From: Minisyncoccia bacterium
GTDB taxonomy: Bacteria; Patescibacteriota; Minisyncoccia; Phycocordibacterales; UBA2100
Assembly (NCBI GenBank): GCA_049297775.1
Contig: JBAQUX010000025.1
Location: forward strand, 58,835 to 122,834
Length of the DNA: 64,000 bases
Direction of reading: 5' to 3'
Part shown: positions 3,336 to 51,689 of the stretch, piece by piece
Position numbering within the stretch: position 1 is the stretch's first letter
Layout: each line of letters opens with the position of its first letter
Notes under the pieces: model-generated
Databases searched by the model: none
Seen by the model: the letters and a program-made list of their open reading frames with translations, nothing else
What the model was told of the DNA's origin: nothing
Program-made: the position numbers and the translations under genes

Positions 3336-4460
3336 TTAGTATTTTTTAGCTGTGTAGCGGGATATATTCAATAGTACCCCCACTGCCCCGAGCGATATGC
3401 AGAGCGCTGTTCCACCATGACTCACAAATATGAGCGGGTTACCTGACAGTGGCAAGAGTGCAATAATCGCTGAAATATTAAGCAGGGACTGTAAGGTAAT
3501 TAAAAGTGTTATACCAAGTGCAAGTAATGTTCCAAATAAGTCTGGCGCACGTATCGCAATCATGCATCCACGAATGAAAAAAGCGAGAAACAGCCCAAGT
3601 AAAATGAGAGACCCGAAGAAACCAAACTCCTCAGCGTATACCGCAAAAATCGTATCGCCAATAGGTTCTGGTAAGTATCCGAACTTCTGAACACTTTGTC
3701 CAAATCCCCTACCAAAAATACCACCAGACCCAACGGCAATGAGTGACTGATGTACCTGATATCCTGAACCCAACACATCAGCTGTAGGGTTTAAAAAAGT
3801 TGTAACACGTTGATACGCATGAGGCTTTAAGATAAGCGCAACAGAAAGTAACAGCAGCCCACACCCAACAACCAAAAGTGCATCTCTCCAGCGCATACCG
3901 CTTGCAAAGAAAAGTGCACCGACCGACGCACAAATAATGAGAAGTACATCGATGTCAGGCTCAAGAATGAGTAGTATTCCTGGAAGTGTCAAAATTCCAC
4001 CAAGTGAACCAAGTGCCCATAGCGTTGATGTAGAAATGTTCTTAGTATTTCCAGCAAGGAATGATGCAGAGAAAAGTATTGTTGCATATTTCAAAATTTC
4101 AGAGGGTTGGAAAGTTATAAAGCCAAGAGATACCCAGCGTGTCGCTCCTTTCAGACTGAGTCCAATGACGGGCAGAAACACACAAAGCGTGAGAAGCGAT
4201 GAAGCGACAAATATGTGCAGTGCATATGTACGCCAAAACGTATACTTAATTTTCGAAAGCATGAGGAGCGCAATTGTGCCCAGTACTAACCCAAGAAAAA
4301 ATTGATTCACAATAATTGAGGTTATTGAAACGGTACCTCGCGCCAAGAGCCCCAACGATGCTGAGATAAATATAAAAAAACCGACAATAGACAACGTTGC
4401 AGTAATAAACTGTAGCGGACCGTCAGCCTTCTTTAATTTTGTTGCCATAACGCTACGCAA
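3336..4460 (-). CDS. ftsW: SEDS-family lipid II flippase/glycosyltransferase FtsW/RodA
   Basis: Polytopic membrane protein of ~370 aa, located between mraY and murG (dcw order), with typical SEDS Gly-rich loops. Confidence 0.8.
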   Translation of the reverse strand: MRSVMATKLKKADGPLQFITATLSIVGFFIFISASLGLLARGTVSITSIIVNQFFLGLVLGTIALLMLSKIKYTFWRTYALHIFVASSLLTLCVFLPVIGLSLKGATRWVSLGFITFQPSEILKYATILFSASFLAGNTKNISTSTLWALGSLGGILTLPGILLILEPDIDVLLIICASVGALFFASGMRWRDALLVVGCGLLLLSVALILKPHAYQRVTTFLNPTADVLGSGYQVHQSLIAVGSGGIFGRGFGQSVQKFGYLPEPIGDTIFAVYAEEFGFFGSLILLGLFLAFFIRGCMIAIRAPDLFGTLLALGITLLITLQSLLNISAIIALLPLSGNPLIFVSHGGTALCISLGAVGVLLNISRYTAKKY

Positions 4461-45089: not shown

Positions 45090-47423
45090 TTACTTAGTAA
45101 CTATCACCATCGTACCGGTGGGCACGATATTCATGAGCTCATTTATTTTTGCATTTTCCACCCGCACACAGCCATTACTCACCTCTCCTGTCATACCGCC
45201 ATCTGGAGAACCGTGTATGGCAATTTCTGGATGCCACTGTCCCGCAAGCACAAGCATGCCTCCTACTTGTCCGCCGTATTCCTTTGGAAATGGTTGCCCT
45301 TTATTTTGAAGCCACCATTGTGCATCACGCTTTCCGACGAGTTGGTATGTTCCTGTAGGTGTAACGTGGTCGCCAATATATCTACGTTCATTTACTCCGC
45401 CCTTACCTATCGCAATATCAAAATTTTGTTCGAGCGCACCCGTTTTTCTATTATAAATCCACAAGTGTCGTGCACTCTTATCAATCACAATCATTTTTTC
45501 CGGACCTTTTTCTGCCTCTGCATATTTTTCTAACACCGTCGGCACGTTGACGCGCCATAAACTAAGCACAAAGTTTTTTGTTGCCTTTGCCACCGCAGAC
45601 GGAAATGATTGGTCAGGGAGCTTGGGCGATTTTGCTCTGTCTTTTGTGGTAAACGGCCACTGGTTAGAAAAGAGTGAATTTTTAAGTACGTCCCACGTCG
45701 TTGGGTTATACATCTCTGGCTTCATCACGTAATAGTCTTCGCCACGTATCACTTGCTTCGTCATAAAGCCAAGACGCACATGCAAATCGAGAACCTTCGT
45801 GGCGATTCTGTTGAGGTCTACTTCAGTTAAATCGGGCACGCCGTCTTTGTTTAAATCAACACCCTCTTTCATGTACTTCACCACGTCACTAATGATACGT
45901 CGCTCTTCTCCGGCGATACCACGAATAAACGCGATGTGGTTACCCGAGGCAAGTGCCTGGTGTACGGCAAGTGCACGCTCTTCAAAACTACGCGCCGGTT
46001 GTGCGCGTGCGTGCTCAGCAATAAATGCTCGTGATGATTCCATGCTGAGGTCGTCAGTTACGGCGACACCTTGAAGCCCAAGACCTGTTTTACTTTTAGG
46101 ACCAGTGAGTGTGTGGATGGCACGACGCGAATATACAGTCGGAATTTTTGAGTCTCCCCACAAGTTGTTGCCGGTGACCGCAGTCATAATGCCCCCAATC
46201 GGTGTTGGGTCGTTTGCGCGTGCGAGCAATGTGTTTATCTGCGCATCAAGTGTTGCCATCAAGCGCTGATTCGCTGCAATGATGACTTGTGTGCGTCCTT
46301 TTTGTGTAGGCACCGCAAGAATTTGTTTTTCATATTCAATATTTTTTGCACGCAATCGTTCTATCTGTGCGCGAAGCTCTGTGGTGCGTCGCTCTATGTA
46401 GTCATTACTCGCATCATTGTTTATCACATCACGGTATGGCACCAGCATTCCTGAGTCTCGTCGGATTACCACATTCGCCTGTTCGCGATGCGGATCTCCT
46501 TCAGCGAGGTTTGTTCCTACGAAGTGCTTGGGAACCACCACGACAGAAGTAGTATCTTTAAACCCGCGAATGTAGGCACCGGCAAGTGCAGAGACCACGT
46601 CGGGGCGCGAGCCATACGCTCTATCATCACGCTCTGCAGGACGAGAGCCATCAATATTTTCTACGATGTCGAGGTTCGGTCCAAAGACCAGGTTAATACC
46701 AGCATGCTCACAAATTTTTGCGATGGTTTTGCCATAGCCCTGCATTTCGTCCAAGAACTTTTGTCTCGCGCCATCTGTAGTGAGTCTGCTATATACGCGT
46801 CCGAGCCATTCCTGACTCGGCAGTGGATGGTCTGCTACAGCGCGTACTTTACCCGCATCACCATTATGTCTGCGTACGTAAAATTCATATTCTTTTTGTC
46901 GTTCCACCAACATGCGTTCAGGTATGCCAAATTTTCGCAGGTCTTCTTGCGTAAGTTTAAAGTGATTAATAAGTCCACCCTCAATATCAGCAGAAATAAG
47001 GACCGGATGTTTTGCTTCAAGGCGAATTTTTCTAATATTTTCTGTGGCGTCAGCGAGTGAGGTCAGTTCACTCCGGTATAAGTGTATGAGTCCCAGATTC
47101 GCACTTGAATTTCTGAGCGCAAATCCCACAGAGGGAAAACGGTTTGCCATACCTTGTGTATACCGCCCCGAATAGAGAGACGAGCCAAGTGCCAGACGCA
47201 GTTTTTCGGTAACCGGAAGTTCAGCAACAGTAAATGCATGGTTGCGAGCAATATTTTCTGTGTTCACTCCGCGTTGCCCCACTTCCATAGCACCTAAGCC
47301 TCCCGCGAAGGCAAGCGCAGTGATACCACTCCGGCGCAAGTTACGCTTAAACGGCGTGATTGGTTGCTTTGGTTGTGGCTCGTTTTTTGGCACACCTTCA
47401 GACATGTGTCTATCGTAGCACAT
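45090..47423 (-). CDS. Bifunctional peptidoglycan enzyme: glycoside hydrolase family 3 (NagZ-like beta-N-acetylhexosaminidase) N-terminal region fused to a C-terminal L,D-transpeptidase (YkuD) domain
   Basis: GH3 motifs ISADIEGGLINHF and VVPKHFVGTNLAEGDPH. C-terminal LDT motif HGSPDGGMTGEVSNGCVRVEN (His/Cys catalytic pair). Confidence 0.7.
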   Translation of the reverse strand: MCYDRHMSEGVPKNEPQPKQPITPFKRNLRRSGITALAFAGGLGAMEVGQRGVNTENIARNHAFTVAELPVTEKLRLALGSSLYSGRYTQGMANRFPSVGFALRNSSANLGLIHLYRSELTSLADATENIRKIRLEAKHPVLISADIEGGLINHFKLTQEDLRKFGIPERMLVERQKEYEFYVRRHNGDAGKVRAVADHPLPSQEWLGRVYSRLTTDGARQKFLDEMQGYGKTIAKICEHAGINLVFGPNLDIVENIDGSRPAERDDRAYGSRPDVVSALAGAYIRGFKDTTSVVVVPKHFVGTNLAEGDPHREQANVVIRRDSGMLVPYRDVINNDASNDYIERRTTELRAQIERLRAKNIEYEKQILAVPTQKGRTQVIIAANQRLMATLDAQINTLLARANDPTPIGGIMTAVTGNNLWGDSKIPTVYSRRAIHTLTGPKSKTGLGLQGVAVTDDLSMESSRAFIAEHARAQPARSFEERALAVHQALASGNHIAFIRGIAGEERRIISDVVKYMKEGVDLNKDGVPDLTEVDLNRIATKVLDLHVRLGFMTKQVIRGEDYYVMKPEMYNPTTWDVLKNSLFSNQWPFTTKDRAKSPKLPDQSFPSAVAKATKNFVLSLWRVNVPTVLEKYAEAEKGPEKMIVIDKSARHLWIYNRKTGALEQNFDIAIGKGGVNERRYIGDHVTPTGTYQLVGKRDAQWWLQNKGQPFPKEYGGQVGGMLVLAGQWHPEIAIHGSPDGGMTGEVSNGCVRVENAKINELMNIVPTGTMVIVTK

Positions 47424-47749
47424 GCATCTCTTCTAAAAATGCACTACGCACAACGCATCTGCAAAATTTCAGAGCGCCCTACCCTCGTGTGTATATATAG
47501 ATACTCAGCAACAGCGCAAGTGAGACACCAAATATCATGGAAGCTTCTCGCGCATATGGTGCGCCGAGCGCAGATACCGCTGTCGTAAAAAATACGACCA
47601 GTGCGTACCCAAGTGCAACGAGCATCAGTGTGGTGAGTATGTTTATAAATGGTTTCATCGCCTTGTTGCAATTAATAGTATATCTGTGTATATTGGTAGT
47701 AATCACCACGAAAGAGACCCTGACATGGCCCTCCATGTTGGGGGCTTTT

Positions 47750-48271
47750 TTATTTCTTGCTACTTGGTACTTTAGAAGCATATTCTAATAGTGAGCGCTG
47801 GTCGTTAATATACGCGATTGGTGCACCAGTTCTCTTAAGTAAGATGGAGCATTTCCCCGTGACCGCTGGCGACAGTATTACTTGCAATGCTGACTTCTCA
47901 ACAAGTACCTTGATGAGAGGCGCATAATCTCCGTCGCTCGCGACAATGACACATTTATTCAGCCGACCTTCATATAAGTCAGCACAGGCTTTCATAAGCA
48001 GGTCTGAGTCACAATTACCTTTTGGTATTCCATTTTGATACAAGACATCTTTAAATGCTAGTTCAAATCCGCATGCCTGCAAATGCACATACAAATTCTT
48101 GTACTTAGGAATTAAACCAATAAATATATACGCTGTATCAATTTTATACTTATCTGACAACCATACACGGAAACGTGCATAATCCAATTTCCAGTTCATC
48201 GTCGGGTCCTTAAGTGCCCTGTCTAAATTCGCTGCATCAATGTAAGCGATATTTATTTTCGATGATGACAT
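47750..48271 (-). CDS. NYN-domain (LabA/PIN-like) putative ribonuclease
   Basis: IAYIDAANLDRAL... and ...VIVASDGDYAPLI (conserved acidic residues of the NYN fold). Confidence 0.6.
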   Translation of the reverse strand: MSSSKINIAYIDAANLDRALKDPTMNWKLDYARFRVWLSDKYKIDTAYIFIGLIPKYKNLYVHLQACGFELAFKDVLYQNGIPKGNCDSDLLMKACADLYEGRLNKCVIVASDGDYAPLIKVLVEKSALQVILSPAVTGKCSILLKRTGAPIAYINDQRSLLEYASKVPSSKK

Positions 48272-48332: not shown

Positions 48333-48902
48333 TTATCCTAAATCAAAATGCGTGATGTACTTCTCTGTTTCGTCTATATCAATCGCAAGCACATAGCGCA
48401 CGTGCTCCTCAACATTAAAAAATTGTGAAATGGTGCGCACCTCTTCGCCACATTCAAATGGATAAATGTAGACCGAGCGTTGGTATGTGGTAAATCCCAT
48501 GTCTTCAAGTTTTTGACGGAACGAGTTTCGGACTGTGGTCATCTCCTTAGGAAAGTCGAACATGACAATGCGCCACTTTTTGTCCCAGCGCTTTGGTGCG
48601 GAAATACTGAGGTCCCAGATGGCAACTTCAGCAAGCTTTACCTTCCCTTCCTGCGTCAGCAATATGTAGTACTCGTCCCCGCGTGAGTCTATGGAGACAC
48701 GGTTTTGTTCTTCAAGGTATTTTATTGCCTTCCAGATGCGGTTACGTTCAAAGCGGTCCTGTGGCTTAAAGTAATTAATCACCTCAAAGGCGCTTGCCTC
48801 AGTCTTTGCGCCTTCGTCAAAGCCACCTTCAACAAGCCGTAAAATACTCCGCGCAAGTTCACCGCGCTCAGGCTTGGGTGCAGGCATGTGTGCCTTGGTC
48901 AT
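48333..48902 (-). CDS. Hypothetical protein: N-terminal winged helix plus C-terminal Cas2/VapD-like ferredoxin-fold region (PaaX-like architecture)
   Basis: The C-terminus WRIVMFDFPKEMTTVRNSFRQKLEDMGFTTYQRSVYIYPFECGEEV resembles the Cas2 beta-alpha-beta-beta core. The N-terminus is wHTH-like. Confidence 0.35.
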   Translation of the reverse strand: MTKAHMPAPKPERGELARSILRLVEGGFDEGAKTEASAFEVINYFKPQDRFERNRIWKAIKYLEEQNRVSIDSRGDEYYILLTQEGKVKLAEVAIWDLSISAPKRWDKKWRIVMFDFPKEMTTVRNSFRQKLEDMGFTTYQRSVYIYPFECGEEVRTISQFFNVEEHVRYVLAIDIDETEKYITHFDLG

Positions 48903-48948
48903 AAGAAGAGCCTAACACAGAGCCACGCTACAGTAAATATGATGATGC

Positions 48949-48976
48949 TTGTATGTAGTGGAGCGAGGTGTATACT
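48949..48976 (+). promoter_or_regulatory. Putative promoter (TTGTAT-16 nt-TATACT) for the tRNA-like gene
   Basis: Hexamers seen directly; the -10 ends ~8 nt before the tRNA 5' end. Confidence 0.35.
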
Positions 48977-48984
48977 TTATATAT

Positions 48985-49083
48985 TGTCCCGTAGTTTAAC
49001 GGCAGAACATTCTTCTTTCTGAGCGCTTAAAATTTTGAGCTTTCTGAAAAAGGAAAATCTTGGTTCGAATCCAAGCGGGACAG
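48985..49083 (+). tRNA. Atypical tRNA-like gene (~99 nt), a candidate tRNA-Gln(CUG) interrupted by a 25-nt insertion flanked by an 8-nt direct repeat (CTTTCTGA)
   Basis: Perfect 7-bp acceptor stem (tgtcccg/cgggaca). D-arm gttt-aacggca-gaac with GG. Canonical T-arm cttgg-TTCGAAT-ccaag. About 49 nt lie between the D and T arms instead of ~22. Removing one CTTTCTGA-flanked 25-mer (49023..49047) leaves an anticodon arm cttct-ttCTGaa-aaagg with one C:A mismatch. Confidence 0.45.
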
Positions 49084-49135
49084 CAATTCGACATAATATT
49101 TTTAGCATATTTGAGAAAAGGAATACGAATGTAAT

Positions 49136-50173
49136 ATGCAGAAAACACAAAAAGAAAACGAGATATGCATAGAGCTTCACTATGATTTTGCAGACAGTGA
49201 TACGCATTCAATAAACTTTTATACGAGGAATAGTTGCTCTTTGGCTCAAGCTGAGATTATTTCTTTTGTAATCGAATCACTCTACCCGGAGCAACAGTTC
49301 GAAATACTATCACTGGCCACAAAGGAAGGTTCTTTGAAAGATTTTGCAGTAGTAAAATTTATAAGTAATAGCCAGAATACAATCCTACTGGCGACAGCGA
49401 TTTCGACCGTTGCGGCTGTAATTTCTATACTTCTATATAGTAGTCAGAAACAGGTAAACCAGAGTACAGATGAGCTAAATACTTTAGCGATATTTGAGAA
49501 ATGTAAAGGATACGACCTAGACGATCTCCAAATTGAGAAAATTAAGGAAATTTGCGCTTCATTCATTCCCAAAAAGCAGAAAAATATATTTTATGAATCT
49601 ATAATATCGAATAACGAAGTAATGTGCATAAATCCTAAATTTACACAAGGAACAAATGAGGTATTTTCTTGCAGAATTGAAAAGAATAATTTTGAGGATT
49701 ATATTGAAAAAATACCTAAGGAAAAAGAGTTTCTGAAGACAGATTTGACGGGTCACATACAACTATCTCAGCCATACATAGATAGACAACAACAGTACGG
49801 TAGAGGGGTACCCTGGAAAGGTATATATTATGGCCTAGATATACTTGACGAGAATGATGAACTTATAATTGGAGACGGCGCAAACGTACTCTTTTATATG
49901 CAGGATGCAAATTACAAGAATCAAATATTGAACCAAGAGGTCAACTTTACTAGCGGCGACAATATTAATGTTGTATTCGATATAAGTCGCAACTATGATT
50001 TTGTAAGCCGAAAATTCGGAGGATCTAGGATGTACGTAAAAAGAGTTGTGCATCACAATGATAACCTCGTTGAACATAAGAAAAATCTTTTGTTAAAAAA
50101 AGAAAAGCAACGATTTGATGAAAAAAACTCTAATCAGGGATTACTATTTGATGGTACTTCTACTCAGCAATGA
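49136..50173 (+). CDS. AT-rich orphan hypothetical protein with an internal TM helix
   Basis: ~35% GC versus ~43% genome. No recognisable motifs. TM NTILLATAISTVAAVISILLY. Starts 53 nt after the tRNA-like gene. Confidence 0.5.
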   Translation: MQKTQKENEICIELHYDFADSDTHSINFYTRNSCSLAQAEIISFVIESLYPEQQFEILSLATKEGSLKDFAVVKFISNSQNTILLATAISTVAAVISILLYSSQKQVNQSTDELNTLAIFEKCKGYDLDDLQIEKIKEICASFIPKKQKNIFYESIISNNEVMCINPKFTQGTNEVFSCRIEKNNFEDYIEKIPKEKEFLKTDLTGHIQLSQPYIDRQQQYGRGVPWKGIYYGLDILDENDELIIGDGANVLFYMQDANYKNQILNQEVNFTSGDNINVVFDISRNYDFVSRKFGGSRMYVKRVVHHNDNLVEHKKNLLLKKEKQRFDEKNSNQGLLFDGTSTQQ

Positions 50174-50189: not shown

Positions 50190-51068
50190 TTGCTATATAC
50201 TGCGCGAGTGACTTGGATTATATACACCTGCATATCGATATTTTCTCGCGCTATTGGCTCTATTGCGCATAAAGTTCTTGCCAAGGAAGTGAGCGCATCG
50301 GGTGAGACACTCGGGTTTCTCTTTCTAACTGCAAGTCTATTTCTTACATTTATTGCGGTACCCGTGTTTGATTTACAGATTGATACATCATTTACCAAAA
50401 ACGAATGGCTGACACTTCTCGGTATGGCACTTACTCAAGGCATTGGAGTTATTTTGTATTTTAAATCGCTCAAGCGCTTAAGTAGCTCGACTGCGCAAAT
50501 TGTTTTCTCTTCCATGCTGATATTCAGCACCATTTTTGCAATTATTTTTCTTGATTCACACTTTACGCTTATAAATATTGTTGGGATTGTTACCTTGATA
50601 CTCGCCATCACCCTTGTCTCTCGACACGACTTACATGGTGACACAAGTGGCATCGTTCTCATGATTGCATCGGCATTTCTTTTTGCCATCTATCAAGTGA
50701 TTAGTGTTGCAGTAGTACACACGTTTACTCTCGTAACATATTTACTTGCCACATATCTTGGCGCAGCAACATGCATAGCTTTATACGCACCTCGCACTGT
50801 TTTTGCAGAAATTGTATATAGTAAAGACCAAGTACAATTACTTTACCTCTCACTCATTGCAGGGGCGACGAGTCTTGGTAATGTTGCCTTTGCATACCTC
50901 GCCTACGCGAGTGCACCAGAACCAATTAAAGTTGCTCTGTTGCTTACCACCCAAGTTGTTGTCTCAGTAATTCTCGCGTACATCTTCCTAAAGGAACGTG
51001 ACGACTTTTTTGCAAAATGTGTTTCTGCAATTCTTGTGGTTATTGCTGGGTATGCACTACTCGGCTAG
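50190..51068 (+). CDS. EamA/DMT-family transporter
   Basis: ~10 TM helices arranged as two EamA-like halves. Confidence 0.6.
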   Translation: MLYTARVTWIIYTCISIFSRAIGSIAHKVLAKEVSASGETLGFLFLTASLFLTFIAVPVFDLQIDTSFTKNEWLTLLGMALTQGIGVILYFKSLKRLSSSTAQIVFSSMLIFSTIFAIIFLDSHFTLINIVGIVTLILAITLVSRHDLHGDTSGIVLMIASAFLFAIYQVISVAVVHTFTLVTYLLATYLGAATCIALYAPRTVFAEIVYSKDQVQLLYLSLIAGATSLGNVAFAYLAYASAPEPIKVALLLTTQVVVSVILAYIFLKERDDFFAKCVSAILVVIAGYALLG

Positions 51069-51086: not shown

Positions 51087-51689
51087 TTACTTCCACAACT
51101 TTACGCGTGCAGGGCGAATGACTCTACCGCCAAGTTCATAGCCAGTACGGAGGACTTGCGCAACCGTATGTGATTTTGCCTCCTCACCTGCGGGTGTTTC
51201 TTCAGTGTCTTCAATTGGGTCATGGCGTACGGCATCAAACACTTCGCCAACTTTTCCGTACGAAGTAATACCGTTTTCATCGAGCACTTTTTTAAACTGT
51301 GAATGAATGTACTCAATACCCACACGCCAGTTACTGTCTACCTTTTCCCAGGCACTTCCGGTAAATGCAGAATCAAAGGCATCAAGTATGGGGAGCAGTT
51401 CCTCAAGCATGCCCTCCTTTACCATGGCACCCACGCGTGCGCGCTGTTCTTCTGCCACCTTGTCGCGGTTTACGACATCGGCCTTCATGCGTTGCCAGCC
51501 ATTCAGGTACTCCTGCTTCTCTGCTTCAAGTTTTTTTATTTTCTCGCGGAGCTTTTTTACGAGGGACGCACCCGTGTCTTCGTCATACTCAACACCACTC
51601 GTGTCTTCTGCCTCATCTGCGCCATCTGCAACAACCGCGTCCTCGTGGTCGTGGTTACAGTTTTCTCCATGTACATGTTCGTCGTTCAT
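51087..51689 (-). CDS. grpE: Nucleotide exchange factor GrpE
   Basis: Acidic N-terminus, coiled-coil, and the C-terminal beta-domain VAQVLRTGYELGGRVIRPARVKL. Confidence 0.85.
   Translation of the reverse strand: MNDEHVHGENCNHDHEDAVVADGADEAEDTSGVEYDEDTGASLVKKLREKIKKLEAEKQEYLNGWQRMKADVVNRDKVAEEQRARVGAMVKEGMLEELLPILDAFDSAFTGSAWEKVDSNWRVGIEYIHSQFKKVLDENGITSYGKVGEVFDAVRHDPIEDTEETPAGEEAKSHTVAQVLRTGYELGGRVIRPARVKLWK

Follow-up and report, generated by a model that had tools for sequence, protein, structure and literature searches.

Is a gene that has the body of a tRNA, and yet no recognizable anticodon loop, a broken tRNA, an interrupted one or an RNA of another kind? The question is raised by a tRNA-like element in a stretch of 64,000 nucleotides (nt) from a Minisyncoccia bacterium (contig JBAQUX010000025.1; "the window" below means this whole 64-kb stretch), where the element stands ahead of a low-G+C gene for a protein of 345 amino acids (aa). 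A first reading of the letters alone (here the original prediction) had taken the element for a Gln-like tRNA with a small intron or insertion, or for a disrupted tRNA, and the downstream gene for an orphan acquired by targeting of the tRNA, possibly a single-gene defense module. Comparison with related genomes points elsewhere. The element is probably a working, non-decoding RNA in which a long hairpin occupies the place of the anticodon arm, and the interpretation that we tentatively prefer, at slightly less than an even chance, is that of a natural tRNA-scaffolded hairpin RNA at the head of a defense hotspot.

A tRNA body around a long helix

The tRNA features on which the original prediction had relied were all present: a perfect acceptor stem, in which TGTCCCG (48985-48991) and CGGGACA (49076-49082) form 7 of 7 Watson-Crick pairs, with the discriminator G at 49083; a D-arm that includes GG (GTTT-AACGGCA-GAAC); and a T-arm with the loop TTCGAAT (Table 1). 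The determinants of the tRNA L shape were likewise kept, namely, U1:A72, G73, U8/A14, G18G19, the R15:Y48 Levitt pair, and an unchanged T-arm. The covariance model check that had been proposed also supported a tRNA body: the Rfam tRNA model (RF00005) called the element over its full length with 47.6 bits (E = 4.5e-07), placing a 31-nt insertion state in the anticodon loop, and this was the sole gathering-level Rfam match across the window. ARAGORN in its bacterial mode called no tRNA anywhere in the 64 kb. With introns allowed, it reported a tRNA-Leu(taa) with a 29-nt "intron," a call that leaves a variable loop of 3 nt and whose register is arbitrary.

The strands of the anticodon stem lie 35 nt apart instead of 7. 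The extra nucleotides described earlier are thus real, and their number is 27 to 28 rather than about 25. The octamer CTTTCTGA occurs twice at a distance of exactly 25 nt, as had been described, and its copies lie one in each strand of the long arm. The anticodon arm drawn earlier (cttct/aaagg) needs a 3-nt shift relative to the D-stem. Thermodynamic folding gave no open loop; the anticodon stem and the extra nucleotides form one continuous helix.

Conservation of the fold in three genomes

Two further copies were found at the same locus and in the same orientation in the Minisyncoccia-type loci L165 (complement 3452-3553) and L171 (complement 196-291). The Rfam tRNA model gave 40.1 bits for the L165 copy and no match at E <= 1 for the L171 copy. 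The octamer repeat is kept at 7 of 8 positions in L165, and L171 has a different repeat instead (AGAGCTTT, twice). The long arm measures 19 bp in the window and 15 bp in L171.

Pairing was counted on the three-way alignment with an explicit 35-pair structure (acceptor, D-stem, 19-pair long arm, and T-stem). Standard pairs were found in 91.4% of the cells, compared with 33 to 60% when the partners were slid by 1 to 3 columns. Nine pairs were altered on both sides (5 of the 7 in the acceptor stem, 1 in the D-stem, and 3 in the long arm), while slid partners gave 0 to 2 such pairs and the observed value was reached in 0 of 500 shuffles. The Levitt pair also covaries, being A15:U48 in the window and L165 and G15:C48 in L171, and U1:A72, G73, and the T-arm (17 of 17 nt) are invariant. 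Compensatory changes across three genomes, in a helix of 15 to 19 bp that takes up the extra nucleotides, are not what a small intron, an insertion, or a disrupted tRNA would lead one to expect, and these three options of the original prediction were given up.

Between the window and L165, the element is 89.9% identical and the strands of the long arm agree at 36 of 38 positions, compared with 79.9% for the adjacent gene overall, 54% for its third codon positions, and 69.5% for the intergenic DNA. While the T-arm is identical throughout, the third codon positions of the neighboring gene are only 46 to 54% identical. Covariance model R1 scored 117.7 bits on the sense (+) strand and 28.9 bits on the reverse strand, and several G.U pairs are conserved, some of them in the long arm. 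Because of these conserved G.U pairs and the gap between sense and antisense scores, the comparisons show a constraint that lies in the RNA (+ strand) rather than in a DNA palindrome. Run over the window and about 890 kb of other loci, both related and unrelated, R1 detected no further copy; within the window it found no partial copy of the element either.

These data bear directly on the possibility that the element is a decaying tRNA-Gln pseudogene or the functionless scar of a small insertion or slippage event. Such an origin would agree with the dispensability of the element between strains, with the direct repeats that flank part of the extra sequence, and with the rejection of the element by ARAGORN in default mode. 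Neutral decay is nevertheless very unlikely, because five acceptor pairs have changed on both sides and are still paired, the Levitt pair covaries, the T-arm is invariant next to the freely changing third codon positions, and the identity of the element exceeds that of the neighboring DNA; the supposed insertion is even the best-conserved part of the element between the window and L165. We therefore strongly disfavor this reading and consider it the least probable of those weighed here.

The strands of the long arm have a further property. The 5' strand is anti-Shine-Dalgarno-like both in the window (arm at 49010-49055; UUCUUCUUUCU) and in L171 (complement 228-266; CCCCUAUCCU), and the 3' strand is Shine-Dalgarno-like (GAAAAAGGAA and GGGAGAGGGA, respectively).

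tRNA-Gln ancestry and probable loss of decoding

When 483 ordinary metagenomic tRNAs were compared, the bodies closest to the window and L165 copies were, among the matches listed, almost all tRNA-Gln(CUG). Ordinary tRNA-Gln(UUG) genes on IMG/VR contigs have the acceptor UGCCCCG/CGGGGCA with U1:A72, G73, an identical T-arm, and a 4-nt variable loop. The element thus resembles bacterial tRNA-Gln (UUG/CUG) in its 7-bp acceptor with U1:A72, in G73, in the D-arm UAGUUUAAYGGYAGAAC, in the identical T-arm CUUGGUUCGAAUCCAAG, and in a 4-nt variable loop like that of the ordinary tRNA-Gln(UUG) of L176 to L178. It differs from bacterial tRNA-Gln in having no 7-nt anticodon loop or conserved anticodon, in its hairpin of 15 to 19 bp, and in being dispensable between strains. 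On this resemblance the element is a descendant of a tRNA-Gln gene, and the Gln-like derivation proposed earlier holds, with a body closest to Gln(CUG) and a T-arm identical to that of tRNA-Gln(UUG). The three IMG/VR "viral" contigs just mentioned (L176, 4230-4302; L177, 256-326; L178, 7363-7433) carry tRNA-Gln(UUG) genes whose bodies are almost identical to that of the window element; they may be fragments of Patescibacteria genomes or of their phages and could represent the donor lineage of the tRNA-like gene.

All three copies have the acceptor with its discriminator, the G18G19 of the D-arm, the UUCRANY loop of the T-arm, and the R15:Y48 pair expected of a canonical tRNA, and the element has neither the 5-bp anticodon stem nor the 7-nt loop, with U33 and an anticodon, that such a stem would close. 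The nucleotides expected in that loop are base-paired and covary as a helix in the three copies, and no "splicing" register yields the same anticodon in the window and L165 copies and in L171. Since the arm is helical throughout, the copies have no anticodon in common, and the L171 copy goes unrecognized by the Rfam tRNA model, the element does not look like a decoding tRNA; to judge from its sequence, it is probably a working non-decoding RNA and not a broken or intron-bearing tRNA.

The reading that preserves decoding is a functional tRNA-Gln(CUG) or tRNA-Gln(UUG) with a new intron of about 27 nt in the anticodon loop, removed by a protein endonuclease and a ligase (e.g., RtcB). The Gln-type body with U1:A72 and G73 agrees with it, and so does the presence/absence pattern, as a cell may do without a second tRNA-Gln isoacceptor; huge phages, too, have been reported to carry short predicted tRNA introns (PMC6784885). 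When 25 to 27 nt were deleted from the window or L165 copy, ARAGORN called Gln(CUG) or Gln(UUG), the removal of 27 nt restoring the loop CUCUGAA or CUUUGAA. In this way the Gln(CUG) call that had been predicted upon deletion of one repeat unit was obtained, but it has little discriminating value: nearly any deletion gave a tRNA call of some kind (Arg, Ser, Glu, Lys, and others). In L171 no sensible register contains a Gln anticodon and Rfam no longer sees a tRNA, and in all copies the putative loop is part of the covarying helix. Furthermore, splicing would leave either a very weak anticodon stem (U.G, U.G, C.A, U-A, U-A) or an 8-nt loop. A scripted search for the bulge-helix-bulge motif found no strict instance in the window or L165 and one chance match in L171, which is incompatible with the conserved helix. 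A group I intron was rejected, the insertion of 27 to 28 nt being an order of magnitude too short and no Rfam intron family matching in the window. No tRNA splicing endonuclease is known from bacteria. A literature search for short bacterial tRNA introns in the candidate phyla radiation (CPR), or for tRNA-like RNAs in defense islands, returned nothing matching. The element shares with intron-containing tRNAs (archaeal/eukaryal with bulge-helix-bulge, bacterial with group I introns, and those predicted in Lak megaphages) an anticodon region enlarged by additional nucleotides within a gene that is otherwise normal; it differs from them in the absence of a shared bulge-helix-bulge and in inferred exon junctions that give differing anticodons in the three copies. 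Taken as a whole, we hold the intron reading to be very unlikely.

A strain-variable slot between grpE and a PaaX-like gene

The gene content of the window is that of a cellular genome, with tyrS, dnaK, grpE, genes for ribosomal proteins, and one for an L,D-transpeptidase, and NCBI lists the protein identical to the 345-aa one under a Minisyncoccia (Patescibacteria/CPR) metagenome-assembled genome. In relatives the order of genes is rpsI, (MFS), grpE, a variable slot, a PaaX/Cas2-like gene, further genes, dnaK, tyrS, and dnaJ. The PaaX-like gene is present in all relatives (71 to 99% identity) and served as the synteny anchor.

Table 1. Features of the window around the tRNA-like element
Feature	Coordinates	Strand	Evidence
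PaaX_M/Cas2-like winged-helix gene, conserved flank, divergent from tRNA-like element	48333..48902	-	Pfam PF20803, 4.8e-19
Left breakpoint, where homology to the conspecific L173 ends, 44 nt upstream of the element	48940..48941		Pairwise alignment
Conserved upstream motif GGAGYGAGGTGTATACT, putative promoter	48960..48984	+	Alignment, blastn conservation from 48960
tRNA-Gln-derived tRNA-like RNA (acceptor stem, D-arm, long arm, T-arm, discriminator G)	48985..49083	+	Rfam tRNA, covariance model R1
Long arm in place of anticodon stem-loop (19 pairs, three 1x1 mismatches, apical loop AAUU)	49010..49055	+	Minimum free energy and centroid folds, pair count
Direct repeat copy 1, CTTTCTGA, 5' strand of long arm	49015..49022	+	Sequence
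Direct repeat copy 2, CTTTCTGA, 3' strand of long arm	49040..49047	+	Sequence
T-arm CTTGG-TTCGAAT-CCAAG	49059..49075	+	Identity across the three copies and with ordinary tRNA-Gln(UUG) genes
Cargo gene 1, 345-aa PDC-S42-like protein, 34.5% G+C	49136..50173	+	PADLOC PDC-S42
Cargo gene 2, EamA-family transporter, 41.5% G+C	50190..51068	+	Pfam PF00892
grpE, conserved flank	51087..51689	-	Pfam PF01025; synteny in relatives

The slot content was different in every genome examined, in agreement with the expectation that the AT-rich gene would not be conserved in synteny. In the window the slot holds the tRNA-like element, the 345-aa gene, and the EamA gene, the last of which was not found between grpE and the PaaX-like gene in L165 to L170. 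L173, whose PaaX-like protein is 99% identical to that of the window, has an OLD/AriA/GajA-like ATPase and no element. L165 (88%) has the element, an unrelated 331-aa gene, and a methyltransferase, and L166 to L169 (75 to 76%) have a pilin-like gene and no element. In L171 (71%) the element precedes an AriA/PtuA/GajA-like ATPase, and L170, which encodes the same PaaX-like protein as L171, has a NucC-like PD-DExK nuclease (DUF6602) and no element. By its gene content, the slot is a strain-variable hotspot dominated by defense-type genes. Gene order showed the element to be accessory, located at the PaaX-proximal edge of the slot, always first in the cassette, and in the orientation of the cargo.

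The original prediction had explained the low-G+C gene by acquisition targeted to a tRNA. In a stronger form, the tRNA-like DNA itself, with its palindromic arm and invariant T-arm, would be an attachment site for site-specific recombinases or phages that exchange cargo. tRNA genes are common targets of islands, and three different cargos lie directly 3' of the element. In addition, the window and L165 cease to be homologous at the 3' end of the element, the crossover point of classical tRNA-targeting integrases. However, no integrase or recombinase was found among the slot genes of the window, L165, L170, L171, and L173, and the far boundary bears no repeat of the 3' end. The second tRNA 3' end that had been suggested as an island mark was sought throughout the 64 kb at up to 3 mismatches, and only the element itself matched. 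Alternative alleles replace the element as well: the left breakpoint relative to L173 (Table 1) and that between L170 and L171, 15 nt before the 5' end of the L171 element, both lie upstream of it, and the RNA gene is therefore part of the replaceable segment and not a core tRNA used as an integration target. The G.U pairs, the compensatory changes in the acceptor, and the strand-asymmetric model score, moreover, indicate selection at the RNA level. Thus, the locus resembles tRNA-flanked islands and core defense hotspots in having low-G+C, strain-variable, defense-type genes directly 3' of a tRNA-type gene between core genes, and departs from them in that it has no integrase and no duplicated 3' end and in that the tRNA-type gene is itself replaceable and non-decoding. 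Island-free relatives would be expected to keep the target tRNA gene, and L173, L170, and L166 to L169 are without the element. Targeted acquisition was consequently dropped as an account of the locus, and we consider the attachment-site reading highly doubtful.

In wider scans, a search of 185,579 species genomes for syntenic loci anchored on GrpE gave 32 Patescibacteria loci, all of them too distant (identity of 54% or less) and none with a tRNA near grpE. A metagenome scan with a D-arm/T-loop pattern returned mostly ordinary tRNAs and, among the matches listed, no long-arm copy. Three scans of viral contigs gave no family members, only ordinary tRNA-Gln(UUG) genes and tRNAs with long variable arms in phage tRNA arrays.

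Position relative to the cargo genes and putative promoter

The spacer between the element and the first cargo open reading frame (ORF) measures 52 nt in the window, 39 nt in L165, and 8 nt in L171, and element and cargo have the same orientation in all three. The three first cargo proteins are unrelated (tblastn; BLASTP E = 2.5). No terminator-like site was found between the element and the 345-aa ORF in a promoter/terminator scan of the window.

The conserved motif upstream of the element (Table 1) contains a -10-like hexamer, TATACT (48971-48976; TACAAT in L171), 8 nt before the 5' end of the RNA. A simple sigma-70 scan did not call the motif, which lacks a -35 element, and its role as a promoter is putative. 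In L171, a Shine-Dalgarno-like GGGAG for the cargo ORF lies within the 3' acceptor strand, 9 nt before the ATG.

In the window, a start-stop mini-ORF, ATG TAA (49129-49134, + strand), ends 1 nt before the ATG (49136) of the 345-aa ORF and is preceded at good spacing by an AAGGA Shine-Dalgarno sequence (49118-49122); this may reflect termination-reinitiation coupling or chance.

The 345-aa protein belongs to a candidate defense family

The gene downstream of the element had been described as an orphan of about 35% G+C. The composition was as described (34.5%, against 47 to 50% in the flanks and 44% in the window), but the protein is not an orphan: 47 homologues with 49 to 61% identity occur across Patescibacteria, and an exhaustive search gave 46 more distant cluster representatives. 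PADLOC matched it to PDC-S42 (E = 1.7e-19; residues 1-338 against profile positions 2-317 of 320), a member of the "guilt-by-embedding" set of 145 defense candidates (bioRxiv 10.1101/2024.01.29.577857). The term "PDC-S42" itself was not found in a literature search. Pfam, PHROGs, and NCBIfam gave nothing meaningful for this protein, and the BFVD matches were uncharacterized phage proteins only. Its AlphaFold (AF2) model (predicted local distance difference test score, 82) consists of an N-terminal alpha/beta domain, a hydrophobic helix at about 82-101 (a predicted membrane helix), a helical segment, and a beta-rich C-terminal domain; a fold search of the PDB with this model found no significant relative.

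The homologues lie in defense islands. In L174 (239-7027) the gene, X, is part of a type I restriction-modification operon, hsdM-X-hsdS-hsdR, and in L008 (2973-12153) and L009 the order is hsdM-TIR-Macro-X-hsdS, X coming directly after Thoeris-like ThsB-TIR and ThsA-Macro genes; the latter loci are compact stacks of systems embedded in one operon. In L005 the homologue stands beside GmrSD and a methylase. L002 (5005-7014) and L003 (1280-3289) each have a homologue (P0007) 12 nt behind a gene for a retron-type reverse transcriptase (PADLOC RT_VII-A2, 4e-78), and the pair may be a retron with the PDC-S42 family as effector. The L002 island also contains a LOOT RNA (750-872, + strand; Rfam RF03000, 70.4 bits), which lies upstream of a 353-aa gene without a Pfam match.

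The window protein agrees with PDC-S42 in its end-to-end profile match and in having homologues between hsdM and hsdS (L174 and L008), the context that defines PDCs. It differs in that its gene is not embedded in a known system, and no known defense system is adjacent to it in the window. The proposed single-gene defense module stands as a candidate, and that the protein may be a membrane-associated effector of the abortive-infection type is a reasonable guess. The family is thus seen in three new contexts, as a stand-alone CPR gene, after a retron-type reverse transcriptase, and after Thoeris-like TIR and Macro genes. No tRNA-like element was found upstream of the PDC-S42 homologues in L002 to L009 or L174; because no homologue locus carries the RNA, the RNA and the 345-aa protein are independent modules that are neighbors here.

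A possible natural tRNA scaffold at the head of a defense hotspot

As far as we found, no bacterial class of natural RNA with a whole tRNA chassis and a swapped anticodon arm has been described in the literature; the permuted YrlA mimics and the "tRNA scaffold" of the laboratory come nearest. The engineered scaffold of Ponchon and Dardel retains the acceptor, T-, and D-arms and carries an inserted hairpin in place of the anticodon stem-loop; in Escherichia coli, the tRNA machinery processes such chimeras and protects them (PMC3753655). The architecture is that of the element; the scaffold is artificial, whereas the element is natural and, on the evidence of its sequence, evolutionarily maintained. 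YrlA is a non-decoding RNA in which a tRNA-like core with canonical tertiary contacts bears a long helix at the position of the anticodon stem (10.1101/312249). It has no free acceptor/CCA end, both of its termini (5' and 3') being part of the long helix, which binds Ro60/Rsr, whereas the ends of the element form a normal acceptor stem and a loop closes its long helix. No Rfam YrlA match was obtained, and no TROVE/Ro (rsr) gene was present among the neighbors scanned by Pfam.

According to the interpretation that we prefer, although we would put it a little below an even chance, the element is a natural tRNA-scaffolded hairpin RNA at the head of the defense hotspot. Its own -10-like promoter would drive transcription, which would continue into the cargo gene, and the RNA would be recognized and excised by the tRNA maturation enzymes, RNase P at the 5' end and RNase Z or exonucleases together with the CCA-adding enzyme at the 3' end. 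The tRNA body would serve as a scaffold that yields a stable, precisely processed molecule displaying the hairpin, and the excision would also set the 5' end of the downstream defense mRNA. The 345-aa gene would be a separate, exchangeable cargo encoding a membrane-anchored member of the PDC-S42 candidate family.

A bolder variant makes the RNA a leader in the shape of a tRNA that acts in cis as a working part of the defense cassettes: its folding and its processing by RNase P/Z would gate the expression of the toxic effector behind it, and it would be a generic RNA sensor module of CPR bacteria, independent of the cargo. Phage perturbation of the tRNA-processing or tRNA-binding machinery of the host would then switch the effector on. 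The Shine-Dalgarno sequence of the L171 effector, inside the acceptor stem, bears on this variant, which we nonetheless regard as quite unlikely.

The main rival is a purely trans-acting tRNA mimic, because the strong sequence conservation of the hairpin suggests a partner. The RNA would be a regulator, a decoy, or a Y RNA-like tether, encoded by an independent accessory gene whose adjacency to the cargo is incidental; as a tether, it would offer the tRNA elbow and acceptor to one partner and the long helix to another. The identity of the long arm at 36 of 38 positions exceeds what a processing signal needs, and the tertiary tRNA contacts are maintained. The cargos, furthermore, are mutually unrelated, which makes a specific pair of RNA and cargo protein implausible, and the strands of the hairpin are Shine-Dalgarno-like and anti-Shine-Dalgarno-like. 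YrlA provides a precedent of a close tRNA mimic with a long helix as a tether (10.1101/312249). Nevertheless, no partner gene travels with the element, the sole constant neighbor being the PaaX/Cas2-like gene, which is also found where the element is absent; no Rfam family besides tRNA matches; and the co-orientation in 3 of 3 loci and the 8-nt spacing in L171 go unexplained. We judge the trans-acting mimic unlikely, with an appreciable chance all the same. The attachment-site and pseudogene readings fit the data less well.

Several points weigh against the natural-scaffold interpretation. Alleles without the element express the cargo without it, so that a role in cis is not required, and the close spacing and shared orientation can also be the passive result of gene insertion directly 3' of a tRNA gene. 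A plain processing leader has no need of a hairpin that is nearly invariant between the window and L165, which hints at a function in trans. Its promoter, its read-through into the cargo, and its cleavage by RNase P/Z are predictions. Splicing retains a slim probability for the window and L165 copies, in which the Gln-type loop can be restored. The covariation statistics come from three copies in one narrow clade and so from few independent events, and the similarity of the window and L165 could in part reflect recent exchange of the variable segment rather than constraint. Even if some of that similarity is due to recent transfer, the paired substitutions argue for selection.

If the RNA is expressed and processed as predicted, evolution would have reached the same trick as RNA engineering, and a new type of RNA gene would be added to the poorly known non-coding repertoire of the CPR/Patescibacteria. 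Its position at the head of a defense slot raises the possibility that tRNA mimicry drives, punctuates, or regulates defense genes. For annotation, the element is a warning: tRNA finders that tolerate introns will label such genes "tRNA-Leu/Ser with intron," and mislabels of this kind would inflate the counts of tRNA introns in metagenome-assembled genomes and misassign anticodons.

Other observations

Other unusual genes were noted in the course of the analysis. The grpE-dnaK heat-shock region of the window is without hrcA and has the PaaX_M/Cas2-like winged-helix gene instead. Between this gene and dnaK (45090-48271, - strand), a gene with an NYN domain (47750-48271) and one for a GH3/YkuD fusion of 777 aa (45090-47423) stand in the window where relatives carry a single gene of about 284 aa, which marks a second variable slot.

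Another tRNA with an expanded anticodon region was found on a metagenome contig (L055, 6751-6837, + strand). It has a Glu-like body, an acceptor extendable to 8 bp (U-1:A73), and the anticodon stem GUUUG/CAGAC, which closes a 20-nt loop with a GCA-GCAA-UGC mini-hairpin. Finally, dense tRNA arrays on phage-like contigs contained tRNAs of about 92 to 96 nt with a long variable arm (L048, 3840-3936; L062, 937-1032; L183, 1699-1790). Those of L048 and L062 have the anticodon loop CUUAUAC (anticodon UAU), and a type II body with an Ile-type anticodon is unusual.

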